DNA of 9,351 nucleotides, taken from the IMG/VR virus record IMGVR_UViG_2713896779_000023. The stretch is one strand, 5' to 3'. The DNA comes from a virus. Its lineage: Duplodnaviria > Heunggongvirae > Uroviricota > Caudoviricetes. The notes beneath the pieces were generated by a model. The model worked only from the letters and a program-made list of their open reading frames with translations, searched no databases and was not told the origin of the DNA. Of this stretch, positions 2,641 through 8,355 are shown one piece after another. Position 1 is the first letter of the stretch. Each line of letters starts with the position of its first letter. The position numbers were made by a program, and so were the translations under genes.

Positions 2641-3049
2641 ACACATCCGCATGGCGATGAATGCCTGGGCGCGTCCTGATGGCGAAAAAGTTCCGGCAGC
2701 TGGAATAACCCAGGCTTATTTTGAGTTGGGTATGACGTTTCCTGAACTGTACGACGACAGCCATCCGGAAGCCCTGGCTCGCAATACCCAGAAAATTTTC
2801 CGCTGGATAGAGAAAGACACCCCTGATGCAGTTGAAAAAATGCAGGCTCTGTTACCGGCGATCGAAAAGGCAATGCCGCCTCTGCTGGTGGCCCGTATGC
2901 GCAGTCACAGCTCTGAATATTACCGTGAGATCGTCGAACGGAGGGATCGGCTGGTGAAAGATGTGGATGATTTTGTCGCAGCGGCGATCGCCTGGGGCAC
3001 CCTGACTAACAGTGGGGGGCAGCCTGGTAATGCTGTTGTCGTGCATTGA
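2624..3049 (+). CDS. YdaT-like protein at the cII position (141 aa)
   Basis: AGGGGGG at 2612-2618 precedes ATG 2624. The N-terminus MKIKHEHI matches my recollection of the Rac prophage YdaT family. It follows a YdaS/Cro-like gene. Confidence 0.6.
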   Translation: MKIKHEHIRMAMNAWARPDGEKVPAAGITQAYFELGMTFPELYDDSHPEALARNTQKIFRWIEKDTPDAVEKMQALLPAIEKAMPPLLVARMRSHSSEYYREIVERRDRLVKDVDDFVAAAIAWGTLTNSGGQPGNAVVVH

Positions 3050-3117
3050 CCAACAATATTCATGCCGGATTTCTTCCGGATGTTCGAGGGTAAAGTTCGG
3101 TATCAGAAGAGGTGAGT

Positions 3118-4185
3118 ATGGCTAATGCCTGGCTCAGATTGTGGCATGACATGCCAAATGACCCCAAGTGGCGAACGATTGCCAGGGTATCAGGACAGCC
3201 AATCGCAACAGTGATGGCAGTGTATATCCATCTTCTGGTGAGTGCGTCACGAAATGTCACGACATGTCACGGCGTGTCACTACGTGGTCACATTGATGTC
3301 ACGACGGAAGATTTAGCAAGTGCGCTTGATGTGACGGAAGACGTAATTGATTCAATTTTGCATGCAATGCAGGGGCGGGTTCTGGATGGTGACCTTATTT
3401 CCGGATGGGAAAAACGTCAGGTGCTGAAAGAGGACAATGGTAACGTTTCGCAAACGGCAAAATCCCCGGCAGAGCGCAAGAGAGCGCAGCGGGAGCGGGA
3501 AAAGCTGCGGAAACATAATGCTGATTGTCACGATGAGTCACGACGTGTCACGCATCTGTCACGACAAGTCACGACAGATAAAGATACAGATAAAGATACA
3601 GATAAAGATACAGATAAAGATACAGATACAGAATTAAACCCCACACATAACGCGCGCGAGAGTATTCCGACCAGTGAGTCGAATGGTGCGCCGTTGCAGA
3701 CAGCCGAACCTGAATACCTGGACGGCCTGAGCGAACCGATCGGGAAATTTCCGATGACTACTGTCTGGCAGCCGTCGCCGGATTTTCGACAACGGGCAGC
3801 AGTGTGGGGTATGGCTCTGCCTGAGCCGGAATTTACACCTGCTGAGCTTGCCGCATTCCGGGATTACTGGATGGCGGAGGGGAAGGTTTTCACGCAGGTT
3901 CAGTGGGAGCAGAAATTTGCCCGCCACGTGCAGCACGTCAGGGCACAGGTAAAACCAGTCAGCAAGGGGGGAAGCCATGCAGCATCAGGTGGCACGGCAT
4001 CACGGGCAGTTCAGGAAATCCGGGCTGCACGCGAACAGTGGGAACGTGACAACGGATTTATCAGCAACGGAAACGGCCTGGAAGCTGTGGGAGCTCATGG
4101 GGGAGGTGTATTCGAACCGCTGGACTCAGAAGAACGGGGCCGCACCTTCGAAGCTCTGGATTGCCCAGATTGGTGCGATGACTGA
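3118..4185 (+). CDS. replication initiator (lambda-O-like role) with internal iterons and a (DKDT)n linker
   Basis: GAGG at 3109-3112 lies 5 nt before ATG 3118. The gene sits immediately upstream of a P-like gene. It contains two clusters of about 10-bp-periodic GTCACGAC repeats and a 12-bp tandem repeat, an architecture like ori-lambda inside O. The N-terminal sequence is not obviously lambda O, so the family is uncertain. Confidence 0.7.
   Translation: MANAWLRLWHDMPNDPKWRTIARVSGQPIATVMAVYIHLLVSASRNVTTCHGVSLRGHIDVTTEDLASALDVTEDVIDSILHAMQGRVLDGDLISGWEKRQVLKEDNGNVSQTAKSPAERKRAQREREKLRKHNADCHDESRRVTHLSRQVTTDKDTDKDTDKDTDKDTDTELNPTHNARESIPTSESNGAPLQTAEPEYLDGLSEPIGKFPMTTVWQPSPDFRQRAAVWGMALPEPEFTPAELAAFRDYWMAEGKVFTQVQWEQKFARHVQHVRAQVKPVSKGGSHAASGGTASRAVQEIRAAREQWERDNGFISNGNGLEAVGAHGGGVFEPLDSEERGRTFEALDCPDWCDD
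3244..3308. repeat. iteron cluster 1: about 6 copies of (T)GTCACGAC-like motif at roughly 10-bp spacing
   Basis: cgtcacga 3245-3252, tgtcacgac 3255-3263, tgtcacgg 3265-3272, tgtcact 3275-3281, ggtcaca 3285-3291, tgtcacgac 3298-3306. Confidence 0.6.
3526..3576. repeat. iteron cluster 2: 5 copies of (T)GTCACGAC at 10-11-bp spacing; candidate replication origin
   Basis: tgtcacga 3527-3534, gtcacgac 3538-3545, tgtcacg 3547-3553, tgtcacgac 3557-3565, gtcacgac 3568-3575; immediately followed by an A-rich tandem repeat. Confidence 0.65.
3577..3630. repeat. perfect 12-bp tandem repeat GATAAAGATACA x4 plus a partial GATACA
   Basis: Read directly from the sequence; encodes DKDTDKDTDKDTDKDTDT inside the initiator gene. 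Confidence 0.9.
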
Positions 4186-5389: not shown

Positions 5390-5703
5390 GTGGGTGGAAG
5401 ACGTGGTGCCGGGCGGAAATCATGATACTCCGGCAGTGTGCGGGAACGATGAAGGTAAAAAGCGTTGGCGCACTTATCGGACGAACTGAAGCGGCAGTGA
5501 GAACGAAGGCACGGGAGCTGGGCATCAGCATGATGTTACGTGGTGATTTTCACCCGTCGGCAAAATATTCTCAGCGTGATATTGAGCTGGCGCGGCAACT
5601 GCATCAGAGAGGCATGCAAAGAAGGGAAATTGCCAGAAAATTAGGCATGCCGCTGCGCATAGTGAATAACTACGTTTATTTCGACAGGAGGGTGTCTGCG
5701 TGA
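5386..5703 (+). CDS. small HTH DNA-binding protein; start ambiguous (GTG 5386, ATG 5422 or ATG 5449)
   Basis: GTG 5386 overlaps the upstream stop (GTGA). HTH-like segment [19 protein letters not shown]. All candidate starts have weak SD sequences. Confidence 0.5.
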
Positions 5704-5927
5704 AAATCCTGTATCAGGATTACGGCCCGGTGGGGCAGGTGGTTATCAGCAGTACTGTAATGGAGTTTCGGAAGCATAACCGTGTGGTGGATGCTGTGCT
5801 GTTAACCTGTCCGGGGATATCGGCGAGTCGTGCAGGTGTGTTTATTATGAAGACGAAATTATATGGCAGTAAGGCGTGGATAAAGAAGGCGTATCGTGTA
5901 GCGTTGCAGGAGGTTAACAGTGAGTGA
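5700..5927 (+). CDS. hypothetical protein (75 aa)
   Basis: GTG start at 5700 overlaps the upstream stop (GTGA), suggesting translational coupling. No recognised motif. Confidence 0.5.
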   Translation: MKILYQDYGPVGQVVISSTVMEFRKHNRVVDAVLLTCPGISASRAGVFIMKTKLYGSKAWIKKAYRVALQEVNSE

Positions 5928-6231
5928 AATTAAAGAAATGCCGGTAGTTCGTGACGGATATGGCTACTGGACACATCCTGAATATGAAAAATTCTGTGAT
6001 GGTCGGGAATATATTTCAACGGAAGAGTTTAACGCCTGGATGGAGGAAAATAATCTTCAATACGTCCTCTGCTTCAGAGATGAAGGATGTGCTGACCTTG
6101 ATGCGTGTGATGCTGATATTTCTGCATGGGAACCGGAACGACCAGAGGGCGATGGCTGGTTTATTGGTTCCATTCATGATACGGAAGATGGCCCGGTTTG
6201 TGTCTGGTTGCGAAATAAGGCTGAAGCATAA
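5920..6231 (+). CDS. hypothetical acidic protein (103 aa)
   Basis: AGGAGG at 5907-5912 lies 7 nt before GTG 5920; overlaps the upstream stop; acidic, Trp-rich; no recognised motif. Confidence 0.6.
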   Translation: MSEIKEMPVVRDGYGYWTHPEYEKFCDGREYISTEEFNAWMEENNLQYVLCFRDEGCADLDACDADISAWEPERPEGDGWFIGSIHDTEDGPVCVWLRNKAEA

Positions 6232-6335
6232 AGGCGATAAACCAACTAACAACTAAATACTGAAGATTTAAATCAGAAACGATTTTTATTAAATCCTTAA
6301 CCGGAGGGATTCCTGCACCCTCAGAACATCAGGAG

Positions 6336-6353
6336 GCCGCCCGAAAGGGCGGT
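6336..6353 (+). promoter_or_regulatory. GC hairpin with GAAA tetraloop placed between the SD and the start codon of the next gene
   Basis: CCGCCC (6337-6342), GAAA loop, GGGCGG (6347-6352). AGGAGG at 6331-6336 and ATG at 6359, so the linear spacing of 22 nt would shrink to a functional distance if the hairpin forms. Confidence 0.4.
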
Positions 6354-6358
6354 AAGAA

Positions 6359-6577
6359 ATGAAACATTATTTAGAAAAAAATTACCCACGAAAGAGCAGA
6401 ACAACAGAGTTTCTGTTTTTCATTCTGTTTATAGTGTTGATGATACCGATATCCCCGCTATTACTGGTCTGGATAATTGGAAGGACATTTGAACCAGTTA
6501 TTGAGCTATATACCGATGTGACATGGGAATCATTCAGCGCACTGCACAATAAAATTAATCCGTATAAGGAAAACTGA
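6359..6577 (+). CDS. small membrane protein (72 aa, one predicted TM helix)
   Basis: Hydrophobic stretch FLFFILFIVLMIPISPLLLVWIIG. The stop is followed 1 nt later by the ATG of the next gene. Confidence 0.5.
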   Translation: MKHYLEKNYPRKSRTTEFLFFILFIVLMIPISPLLLVWIIGRTFEPVIELYTDVTWESFSALHNKINPYKEN

Positions 6578-6578
6578 T

Positions 6579-7136
6579 ATGAGCACTATTACCAGAGAAC
6601 GCGCGGAGATTAAATCATACATCACAGGCTTCCTGAGCGACTCGGCGCACGATAACAAGTCTTCAGACAGCCTGCTGGCTAATGTGTTTCGTATCGCGCT
6701 GGCATCACTGGAAGCAGAGCCGATAGCAATGGTAGTGCCTGATGAAATGGATTTGCTTACCTGCCATCTCGACGGTGTAACTAAAACATATGCTGATGGC
6801 TGGAACGCCTGCCGCGTCGCCATGCTTCAGGCCGGAAACTTTCGGGAAAATAAGAATTCGTCAACCAACAATTTTCGGGAAATCTCGGAAACGTCAACCA
6901 GATCTCCGATAACTCTGGATGGCTGGATAAGCTGTACTGAGCGAATGCCTGAAAAGAGCCAGAACGTGCTTATTTCGATGAATATCGATAGCGAGGCTGG
7001 GCCATTAATATATTCCGCACGCTATCTCGGAGGCACGTTCCGGCGCGGAGGTATAGCAGTTAGTCCGGGTAATGATCTTAGGCAAGCAACCCACTGGATG
7101 TCGCGACCAGAACCGCCGCAGGAGGTGAATCAATGA
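6579..7136 (+). CDS. DUF551-like prophage protein (185 aa)
   Basis: C-terminal pattern DGWIS...ERMPEK...THWMSRPEPP matches my recollection of the DUF551 conserved region. AAGGA precedes the ATG. Contains an internal imperfect tandem duplication. Confidence 0.6.
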   Translation: MSTITRERAEIKSYITGFLSDSAHDNKSSDSLLANVFRIALASLEAEPIAMVVPDEMDLLTCHLDGVTKTYADGWNACRVAMLQAGNFRENKNSSTNNFREISETSTRSPITLDGWISCTERMPEKSQNVLISMNIDSEAGPLIYSARYLGGTFRRGGIAVSPGNDLRQATHWMSRPEPPQEVNQ

Positions 7137-7216
7137 CCTGGCCTGAAGCATTCACAACGGTAGGAATTGCGATGGCGGTGGCGCTGGTGGTGTATTCGAT
7201 TTGCCGCTGGGGATAA
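7133..7216 (+). CDS. candidate 27-aa hydrophobic micro-protein (MTWPEAFTTVGIAMAVALVVYSICRWG)
   Basis: ATG 7133-7135 overlaps the upstream stop TGA 7134-7136 (ATGA). Single hydrophobic helix. Below the ORF-track length cut-off. Confidence 0.35.
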   Translation: MTWPEAFTTVGIAMAVALVVYSICRWG

Positions 7217-7314
7217 AAACGGTTTGCGGGAAAAGGATAGTTAAGTAGAATTGCTGCGGGTGCTTGAGGCTATCTGCCTCGGGCATGAACACCAACGGCA
7301 GATAGAGAAAAGCC

Positions 7315-7364
7315 NNNNNNNNNNNNNNNNNNNNNNNNNNNNNNNNNNNNNNNNNNNNNNNNNN
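7315..7364. other. run of 50 N (masked or unresolved sequence)
   Basis: Literal n characters. Confidence 1.
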
Positions 7365-7606
7365 ATCGTCATCTGTTTAACCGTCATAGTGACGGCACTG
7401 GTAACGAGGAAAGACCTCTGCGAGGTGCGAATCCGAACCGGTCAGACGGAGGTCGCTGTCTTCGTAGACTACGAATCTGAGAAGTAAGAGACCAGGCGGG
7501 GGAGTAATCTCCCGCCACCTCTGATGTGTCAGGCATCCTCAACGCACCCGCGCTTTACCATACTGAAAATGCTGTTTGAATGTTCATCTCTGAAAGAGGA
7601 CTATGA

Positions 7607-7951
7607 ATGAAAAAGGTATTGATTGCAGCACTTATTTCCGGTGTGTCTTTTGGCGCTTTTGCACAGCAGGGTGGTTTCCAGGGGCCAGAAGCAGAGCGTT
7701 CAACAGTAGCGCAGGCAAAAGAACTGAAGGATGATGCATGGGTTATCCTTGAAGGGAGCATCGTTAAAAAAGTGGGTGATGAACGTTATGAGTTTCGTGA
7801 CAATAGCGGGACAATTGTCACGGATATTGATGACAGCGTATGGGCCGGGCAGAATGTTTCTCCGAAAGACAAAGTAAGAATTGAGGGTGAAATTGATAAA
7901 GACCTGAGCAGTGTTGAAGTTGATGTAAAGGCACTGAAATTATTAAAGTAA
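7607..7951 (+). CDS. YgiW/YdeI (BOF, bacterial OB-fold) family periplasmic protein; moron-like
   Basis: Signal peptide MKKVLIAALISGVSFGAFA followed by QQGGF. Family-typical motifs TVAQAKELKDDAWVILEGSIVKKVGDERYEFRDNSGTI and VRIEGEIDKD. AAAGAGGA precedes the ATG. Own terminator downstream. Confidence 0.8.
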   Translation: MKKVLIAALISGVSFGAFAQQGGFQGPEAERSTVAQAKELKDDAWVILEGSIVKKVGDERYEFRDNSGTIVTDIDDSVWAGQNVSPKDKVRIEGEIDKDLSSVEVDVKALKLLK

Positions 7952-8305: not shown

Positions 8306-8355
8306 NNNNNNNNNNNNNNNNNNNNNNNNNNNNNNNNNNNNNNNNNNNNNNNNNN
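8306..8355. other. run of 50 N (masked or unresolved sequence)
   Basis: Literal n characters; the frame relation across it is undefined. Confidence 1.

Follow-up and report, generated by a model that had tools for sequence, protein, structure and literature searches.

We identified a micro-protein gene of 27 codons at positions 7133-7216 on the plus strand of a 9,351-nucleotide (nt) stretch of caudoviral DNA, IMG/VR virus record IMGVR_UViG_2713896779_000023, the whole of which is hereafter referred to as the window. Its open reading frame (ORF), opening with ATG and closing with TAA, translates to MTWPEAFTTVGIAMAVALVVYSICRWG, and the best overall reading, to which we give a probability of about 0.6, is that the product would be an inner-membrane micro-protein with its N-terminus outside and its C-terminus inside (N-out/C-in), produced in early phage operons by coupled translation; it may act by binding to a conserved membrane protein. 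An earlier, sequence-only reading of the window had pointed to a 27-codon ORF at this position with exactly this peptide, to the overlap of its ATG (7133-7135) with the TGA (7134-7136) of the upstream DUF551 gene, and to a product that is essentially one transmembrane helix; the ORF and the overlap were confirmed, and the product is likewise predicted herewith to be a single hydrophobic helix. The same reading considered that the ORF might equally be non-functional, which does not agree with the purifying selection described below and with conservation from Escherichia coli prophages to phage contigs of 33-71% guanine plus cytosine (GC).

Coding capacity and selection

A degenerate DNA pattern was prepared for the amino-acid motif M-x-W-P-E-A-F-x-x-V-G, leaving the wobble bases and the rest of the ORF free, and the search of IMG/VR with this pattern, together with the loci already fetched, gave at least 126 matches. 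Among the matches listed, from which the 50 alleles analyzed below were also taken, all 126 are short hydrophobic ORFs, 112 of them exactly 27 codons in length, and at least 50 distinct 27-codon DNA alleles are kept in the same frame. Within the pattern-free codons 12-27, the entropy at the first, second and third codon positions was 6.6, 4.6 and 10.8, respectively, and the ratio of nonsynonymous to synonymous polymorphism (pN/pS) was 0.45, the two other sense frames giving 1.22 and 1.61. Parsimony changes, counted on a neighbour-joining tree so that shared ancestry is counted only once, were distributed over the three codon positions as 33, 26 and 66 (chi-square p=1.8e-5), and on the tree of these alleles the stop codon of the micro-ORF switched six times between TAA and TGA with no change to a sense codon. 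In genomes of 33-71% GC the codons of the motif vary while the amino acids stay (CCT/CCG/CCC for proline, GAA/GAG for glutamate, GCN for alanine and TTY for phenylalanine), and the RNA structure of 7095-7225 is unremarkable, with a fold z-score of -0.53. Because of the codon periodicity, the pN/pS ratio, the conserved stop and the unremarkable RNA fold, we conclude from the comparison of alleles that the micro-ORF is a genuine protein-coding gene, translated and under purifying selection. Conservation of the frame in related prophages, which had been proposed as a check, was observed together with conservation of start and stop across many contexts.

An ORF that is a product of chance or in decay, or a sequence conserved at the level of DNA or RNA (as a recombination linker, an upstream element of the hok promoter or an RNA structure), could be proposed in view of the facts that 27-codon ORFs are common by chance, that this sequence lies exactly at a mosaic junction and that RefSeq does not call it. 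Such an origin is largely refuted and hardly credible now, since the three-base periodicity is in the frame of the micro-ORF, the stop is kept through the TAA/TGA switches, unrelated phage backgrounds keep the motif as protein while using different codons for it, and the ORF occurs with or without hok downstream and with no significant RNA fold.

Translation signals and modular organization

The sequence AGGAGGTGA at 7120-7128 is a perfect 9-nt complement of the 3′ end of 16S rRNA, and this Shine-Dalgarno (SD) sequence, which the earlier reading had not mentioned, ends 4 nt before the ATG, the distance from its GGAGG core to the ATG being 7 nt. The micro-ORF and the preceding gene are thus co-directional cistrons whose stop and start overlap within the 1-4 nt that define a translationally coupled pair. 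Among the 132 loci listed, ATGA was found in 99 and TGATG or TAATG in 31, so that start and preceding stop overlap in 130. An SD of the GGAGG type stands about 6-10 nt before the ATG in nearly all loci, whichever gene precedes, and is built from the last codons of the upstream gene, which read ...QEVNQ*, ...EQEVNR*, ...VEDILR*, ...RLEVR* or ...GVEVK*. Codon 2 begins with A in 96 of 106 alleles, and serine at this codon is written AGY 21 times and TCN only once; this bias points to selection for the ATGA overlap itself.

At least five unrelated types of upstream C-terminus were identified among the loci listed, including DUF551 (63 loci), 'KLPDKAMDYLKRNGLI' of the KLPDKAMDYL family (28), an Ea22 coiled-coil (11), 'AVWRLEVR' (5) and 'AGIGVEVK' (3), and many of the upstream genes have a modular Ea22-like N-terminus in common; in non-enteric phages the upstream gene encodes, for instance, a DHH phosphoesterase or a DUF669 protein. 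The downstream sequences fall into at least 26 clusters, including hok/sok (33 loci), a cluster that precedes xis-int in VT1-Sakai (22 loci), several sequences that by eye resemble terminator hairpins, and one convergent ParDE pair. Upstream and downstream types combine freely; in ArgO145, vB_EcoM_TH18, 933W and VT1-Sakai the ORF begins on the preceding stop while the flanking genes differ. As judged from these loci, the SD and the ORF together are an independent mosaic module that forms the distal cistron of early phage operons, either of the pL/ea region or of the pR/nin region. The coupling to the DUF551 gene proposed earlier therefore holds in the window by virtue of the ATGA overlap, but the module is not an accessory of DUF551, since it also follows Ea22 coiled-coil, KLPDKAMDYL, DHH and DUF669 genes. 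No functional link of the micro-ORF to the DUF4014 protein encoded from 6359 or to hok was found.

The strict coupling to the upstream stop, together with the frequent position of the ORF as the last cistron before a hairpin (terminator-like by eye) or before a separately promoted module, could mean that it is the act of translation that matters and not the peptide, for instance by keeping ribosomes on the operon end against Rho-dependent polarity or by controlling read-through into the downstream module. This is very improbable given that the amino acids are conserved while the codons vary among genomes of 33-71% GC, that hydrophobicity and charge pattern are kept and that pN/pS is below 1. 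An arrest or leader peptide was also rejected by reasoning, because it is the N-terminus, not the stop, to which the conserved part keeps a fixed position, because members range from 21 to 31 residues and because the downstream context is variable.

Over 6900-7314 the window has 100% identity with a prophage in E. coli O121 RM8352, and many O157:H7 prophages have a near-identical sequence. At the O121 twin locus, RefSeq gives the order replication protein P, DUF1627, a DNA-binding protein, two hypothetical proteins, DUF4014, DUF551, Hok/Gef, a YgiW-family protein, a hypothetical protein, DUF968 and RusA, and on account of this gene order the micro-ORF is placed in the nin-type region of a lambdoid prophage of the Shiga-toxin (Stx) type, between P and DUF968/RusA, transcribed rightwards from pR. 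On the plus strand at 5600-7620, a consensus scan detected no promoter-like or terminator-like site except for one weak promoter-like match inside a gene.

Distribution and the wider family

By tblastn of the peptide against 50,697 phage records, we identified 94 phages with 59-100% identity. The SD plus ORF is present in 1739 of 5426 complete E. coli genomes at a total of 3445 places, with a median of one and a maximum of eight copies per genome, and 164 of these places are on plasmid records, several of which are about 90-100 kb in size (H107, H108, H115 and H118). The micro-ORF is also carried, again starting on the preceding stop, by the virulent Vequintavirinae phage Av-05 (NC_025830.1, 74413-74493), and this phage together with the plasmid copies indicates that it is not limited to lambdoid prophages or to lysogeny. 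It was not found in the K-12 prophages Rac, Qin and DLP12 nor in the inspected part of CPS-53 (after yfdS/yfdT), and lambda has no such ORF after ea22.

Distant members were searched for with the pattern restricted to proline codons other than CCT, thereby avoiding the E. coli alleles. All 13 matches in IMG/VR are hydrophobic peptides (12 of 21-30 residues and one of 50) on contigs of 40-71% GC, and 46 of 50 matches in metagenomes are short hydrophobic ORFs on contigs of 33-68% GC, of which ORFs 42 are complete and at most 35 residues long, one has 45 residues and three are cut by contig ends; the other four metagenome matches are non-members, a number near the chance expectation. Among species-representative genomes the family was detected in Escherichia/Shigella, Izhakiella and Sphingobium, together with a longer form of 65 residues in a metagenome-assembled genome of Pseudobdellovibrionaceae; two actinobacterial matches in this set were rejected as chance. 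The Sphingobium copy lies directly upstream of genes for a YqaJ-type exonuclease and RecT, and other distant copies are neighboured by genes for a DnaA-like helix-turn-helix (HTH) protein, a helicase, PD-(D/E)XK and VRR-NUC proteins, an RNase T-like exonuclease and Cro/C1 HTH proteins. No neighbour gene recurs in the non-enteric loci, each early or replication gene being met once.

A profile search of 1.84 billion representative proteins gave 55 matches at E<=1e-3, mostly of 24-54 residues, the longer ones being upstream extensions or fusions of the micro-ORF. Alignment A1 shows an invariant or near-invariant motif, and W3, P4, E5, A6 and G11 are near-invariant also in protein sets that were not chosen by the pattern. 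Members usually carry an aromatic residue near position 21 and a basic C-terminal end, and a few longer ones are extended C-terminally by polar, basic tails. The window peptide starts with MTWPEAFTTVG and so agrees with the family motif from residue 1, and it also has the other characters of the family, a length within 21-31 residues, a hydrophobic helix, K/R near the C-terminal end (R25), its own SD, an overlapping start and a location in an early region. By these characters it is a member of a previously undescribed family of phage micro-proteins of 21-31 residues, with an MxWPEAFxxVG N-terminus and one predicted hydrophobic helix.

Codons 12-17 contain the quasi-repeated hexamers GCGATG/GCGGTG, which are expanded in frame in other E. 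coli assemblies (GIAMAMAMAVAL..., GIAMAMAMAMAMAVAL... and GIAVAVAVAVAL...). In the expanded alleles (P0070, P0072, P0074, P0076, P0078 and P0079), one of which is in a 4.86-Mb genome, the transmembrane segment is longer by 2-8 residues.

Predicted membrane topology

The mean Kyte-Doolittle hydropathy of residues 7-24 is 2.13, a value that only 2 of 6441 shuffled versions of the ORF, made from its own bases and free of stops, attain, and by this prediction the helix is hydrophobic enough for membrane spanning. Helical-wheel angles place two faces of small residues on opposite sides, P4/G11/A15/S22 and A6/A13/A17/C24. Among 74 distinct peptides, residues 1-8 have a mean net charge of -1 and the last seven residues one of +0.9, and K/R was found at the C-terminal end of 64 and within residues 1-18 of only two. 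From the acidic N-terminal end (E5) and the basic C-terminal end (R25) an N-out/C-in orientation is predicted by the positive-inside rule. With a single helix and not more than 50 residues, the peptide is in the size range of small membrane regulatory proteins.

Natural in-frame fusions of an Ea22-like protein directly before the micro-protein were observed, P0100 of 143 residues (6 contigs from at least 3 samples) and P0102 of 206 residues. The fusion locus (L207/L208/L209, 1501-1932, in Logan contigs) reads ...DLPPLESNK-MSWPDAFAIAGVAMSIALIVFAICRWG and is situated in an ea region, with DUF4222, xis and int downstream of it. Another frame contains two TAA codons directly before the ATG, which suggests that the fusion arose by an upstream frameshift.

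The overlap of the start with the upstream stop in nearly all loci listed (130 of 132), the modular Ea22-like gene upstream in about 80% of enteric loci, the natural fusions P0100 and P0102 in an ea-region lineage and a weak likeness to the ElaB-type C-terminal anchor DUF883_C (E=0.042) would all suit a membrane tether, that is, a peptide that binds the Ea22-like/DUF551 protein, or carries it by fusion or frameshift, to the inner membrane as a detachable anchor. The upstream genes are, however, mutually unrelated (DUF551, coiled-coil, DHH phosphoesterase, DUF669 and others), at some loci no upstream ORF overlaps the start, the charge pattern predicts N-out, which is the wrong way for a tail anchor, fusions are rare while the free 27-residue form dominates, and the DUF883_C match gives 14 bits against a cut-off of 27. 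Tethering is improbable, and it is not the general role, given the diversity of the upstream genes and a predicted orientation that is the wrong way round.

Possible mode of action

For the inner-membrane micro-protein that we favour, the following course of events may be proposed. After prophage induction, transcription from pR would run through the DUF551 gene into the micro-ORF, as we infer from the fact that neither a promoter nor a terminator was detected from gene P to the ORF. Ribosomes ending on the DUF551 gene would reinitiate there, fresh 30S subunits would bind the SD directly, or both. The peptide would then insert in the inner membrane with its short acidic N-terminal end outside. 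Short acidic N-tails are typical of YidC-type insertion, as for the coat proteins of Pf3 and M13. W3-P4-E5 may cap the helix at the periplasmic interface, the invariant A6-F7-x-x-V10-G11 would be in the half of the helix within the outer leaflet, and Y21, W26 and R25 would anchor the cytoplasmic end. The stripes of small residues may finally pack tightly against a conserved inner-membrane protein, the peptide serving as a host-takeover or accessory factor.

Since phages of very different hosts share the same invariant part, we tentatively favour such binding to a conserved inner-membrane protein over pore formation. A more far-reaching and doubtful proposal is that MxWPEAFxxVG peptides might be widespread, unrecognised host-takeover effectors, the periplasmic-leaflet half of which docks early into one universal inner-membrane machine, switching it off or re-programming it. 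Its scope, speculative to the same degree, would follow the invariance, which spans lambdoid, P1-like and rV5-like phages of E. coli and soil phages of 33-71% GC, with, for example, a divisome/elongasome glycosyltransferase, FtsH-HflKC or YidC/SecYEG as the candidate machine.

A membrane-damaging peptide, such as a type I toxin, a viroporin or a holin-like protein, was considered in parallel, in which oligomers formed through the small-residue faces would depolarise or permeabilise the membrane, leading to host shutdown or to abortion of competing phages. The micro-protein resembles the type I toxins Hok/Gef, TisB, Ibs and Ldr in being a small hydrophobic membrane peptide on prophages; its 27-residue, very hydrophobic helix has faces of the GxxxA/AxxxA type on opposite sides, a hok toxin locus adjoins in 33 of the 132 loci listed, and expression only from repressed early operons, if correctly presumed, would make toxicity tolerable. 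It differs from these toxins in the absence of type I control features: antisense RNA, a mok-type leader and a fold-back mRNA are all lacking, and where those toxins are translationally silenced the micro-ORF has a perfect SD and is obligately coupled to an ordinary gene. Moreover, charged or polar residues that could line a pore are missing from the helix, what is invariant is the N-terminal motif of 11 residues and not an amphipathic pattern, and no match to Hok/Gef or another toxin family was obtained, so that membrane damage is considered unlikely. Identity with Hok/Gef was rejected, because there is no Pfam Hok/Gef match at E<=1, the peptide has 27 residues as against about 50, and the real Hok (51 residues) is encoded by a separate downstream gene. 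Control of the hok/sok type (Sok antisense RNA, mok frame and fold-back mRNA) was likewise rejected, since the Rfam sok element begins only at 7258-7260, 42 nt downstream, and most loci carry no hok/sok.

Several observations count against the proposed inner-membrane micro-protein or parts of it. The antisense frame that shares the wobble positions has a pN/pS of 0.39, similar to that of the sense frame, as is expected, and the assignment of the strand thus depends on the ATG, the SD, the conserved stop and the hydrophobic product. The summed Hessa insertion energy (dG) is about 0-0.1 kcal/mol, and the rare Ea22-like fusions would need the opposite, N-in orientation. The evidence for the membrane-target step consists of the motif conservation and the small-residue faces. 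The peptide was not found in the supplements, possibly incomplete as files, of the ribosome-profiling (RIBOseq) study of enterohemorrhagic E. coli Sakai, nor in those, again possibly incomplete, of the Enterobacteriaceae microproteome preprint and the human-microbiome small-gene study; owing to its absence from the K-12 prophages inspected and from lambda after ea22, ribosome profiling of K-12 or lambda would not have seen the micro-ORF.

Comparison with known small proteins

AcrZ, MgtS, MgrB, KdpF and CydX are small single-pass inner-membrane regulatory proteins of enterobacteria. The micro-protein would resemble this class in having fewer than 50 residues, one helix and no signal peptide, in having long been missed by annotation, and in the proposed packing of its helix on a larger protein; it has no sequence relationship to the class, however (the best being KdpF, at 14.7 bits), and differs in being phage-borne, in its early operon and in its invariant N-terminal motif. 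The family is new, within the known class of phage and bacterial membrane micro-proteins.

SidA of Caulobacter is a 29-residue membrane inhibitor of late cell division. By analogy with SidA and with phage division inhibitors, host takeover by a tiny product of an early or stress operon through a conserved envelope machine appears plausible. Rac KilR and Qin DicB, as annotated in the K-12 prophages, were compared, together with lambda Kil and T7 gp0.4, which are cited as division inhibitors of phage early operons in PMC11323111. Unlike the micro-protein, Kil, KilR, DicB and gp0.4 are soluble and directed to FtsZ or MinC.

As reported in PMC11188072, a sizeable fraction of the Entero67K small-ORF (smORF) clusters start within 10 nt of an upstream stop or overlap it. 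The micro-protein is like the intergenic Entero67K smORFs under purifying selection in being short, hydrophobic, unannotated and near a gene end, but the peptide was not found in the supplement of that study, and the family extends far beyond the Enterobacteriaceae and is tied to phage early regions. The likeness to the ElaB/YqjD-type anchors, with the glycine-zipper region of DUF883_C, lies in a helix initiated by W/P, G/A at i+4 spacing and a basic end (weak match, E=0.042), and the difference lies in the sub-threshold score, the free-standing peptide and the opposite predicted orientation.

Annotation status and public records

The ORF had been called unannotated in the sequence-only reading, and this is the case in RefSeq, where the O121 twin locus is blank between the DUF551 gene and hok and the micro-ORF is uncalled in all four loci inspected. 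In a few GenBank records (79 contigs) the exact 27-residue peptide is called 'hypothetical' or 'bacteriophage protein', and further variants, detected with a 40-residue in-frame upstream extension as query, are also called. The NCBI label 'DUF551 domain-containing protein, partial' sits on fragments of the micro-ORF (P0012, P0017, P0033, P0034, P0041, P0047 and others). These labels are wrong, as the proteins, GGESMTWPEAF... among them, are out-of-frame extensions that run from contig edges in the frame of the micro-ORF and are devoid of DUF551 sequence. Membership of the peptide in DUF551 (PF04448) was rejected, the profile match being confined to residues 115-181 of the upstream protein. A cluster at 90% identity that joins the peptide to 121-residue Shigella DUF551 proteins, and thus seems to be evidence of fusion, is a clustering artefact, for these proteins do not contain the peptide.

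When the peptide and 18 diverse members were scanned against Pfam, NCBIfam, PHROGs and PADLOC, all matches stayed below threshold and were hydrophobic noise (DUF883_C, PTR2, KdpF and a few unnamed PHROGs), and a profile search of PDB sequences gave no match at E<=10. KdpF (TIGR02115) was rejected at 14.7 bits (E=0.024) over only 12 residues, as against a cut-off of 26.85, and the ElaB-type tail anchor DUF883_C (PF19029) at 14 bits (E=0.042), as against a gathering cut-off of 27, the peptide being free-standing. A full-text search of the searchable literature library for the peptide string found no paper.

Organization of the surrounding region

The features of the locus are summarized in Table 1. 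The upstream gene encodes 185 residues, of which 115-181 match DUF551 (Pfam, E=7e-18).

Table 1. Positions of the micro-protein gene and of adjoining features in the window
Feature	Position	Strand	Basis
Micro-protein gene	7133..7216	+	Commonest allele among the IMG/VR phage matches listed; codon-periodic substitutions
ATGA start/stop overlap, ATG of the micro-ORF with TGA of the DUF551 gene	7133..7136	+	Read from the sequence
Shine-Dalgarno sequence AGGAGGTGA	7120..7128	+	Lies in the final codons of the upstream gene, Q-E-V-N
Codons 1-11, family-defining N-terminal motif M-x-W-P-E-A-F-x-x-V-G	7133..7165	+	Near-invariant also in sets not selected by the pattern
Codons 7-24, predicted transmembrane helix FTTVGIAMAVALVVYSIC	7151..7204	+	Kyte-Doolittle, Hessa dG and helical-wheel angles
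Upstream cistron, modular Ea22-like protein with C-terminal DUF551 domain; its stop overlaps the micro-ORF start	6579..7136	+	
Boundary of the downstream module, putative hok promoter and 5′ end of the hok/sok RNA element; outside the micro-gene	7223..7260	+	

A complete type I toxin-antitoxin locus of the hok/sok type (a hokW/hokD homologue) occupies 7258-7487, its start being 42 nt after the stop of the micro-ORF, and is masked at 7315-7364. The only Rfam match, to the sok model (RF01794), starts at 7260 of the window, or at 2859 of the unmasked twin locus L001, corresponding to 7258 of the window; in this twin locus it scores 113.5 bits at 2859-3033, and Hok is MKQQKAMLIALIVICLTVIVTALVTRKDLCEVRIRTGQTEVAVFVDYESEK. 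A putative hok promoter was found by eye, with TTGCGG (7224-7229) as the -35 and TAGAAT (7246-7251) as the -10 hexamer, neither of which was called by the consensus scan. Downstream of hok follows a gene for a YgiW/YdeI-type protein (bacterial OB-fold) at 7607-7951, with the apparent signal peptide MKKVLIAALISGVSFGAFA; the hok-ygiW pair is found also in 933W as hokW-L0136.

The window contains three runs of 50 N, at 1412-1461, 7315-7364 and 8306-8355. The run at 7315-7364 replaces 145 real bases, covering sok and the starts of mok and hok, of the otherwise identical O121 genome, indicating that the masks are placeholders of fixed length and that the coordinates beyond each are shifted relative to the source. 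A GC-rich hairpin, GGCCGCCCGAAAGGGCGGT, is located at 6334-6352, directly upstream of the DUF4014 start (6359) and overlapping its ribosome-binding region; as a terminator it was rejected by the scan, for it has no U-tract. The O-like replication gene at 3112-4185 contains repeats at 3246-3291, 3526-3575 and 3574-3632, consisting of two arrays of the 10-nt unit GTCACGACNT and 4.9 copies of the 12-nt unit ACAGATAAAGAT, which encodes DKDT repeats. This layout is reminiscent of the iterons of the lambdoid ori inside gene O.

Significance of the micro-protein family

About one in three sequenced E. coli genomes, including Shiga-toxin strains of O157 and O121, carries 1-8 copies of this gene. In Stx prophages its product would be the third small membrane peptide, after DUF4014 and Hok, of the induction-transcribed region between P and Q. 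The family is recognisable by its 11-residue N-terminal signature and can thus be called by annotation pipelines with a simple profile, and a peptide of 27 residues, which can be synthesised, may provide a compact probe for a conserved membrane process manipulated early by phages. If it is true that the conserved N-terminal motif addresses a universal membrane target, the family would be of high interest.

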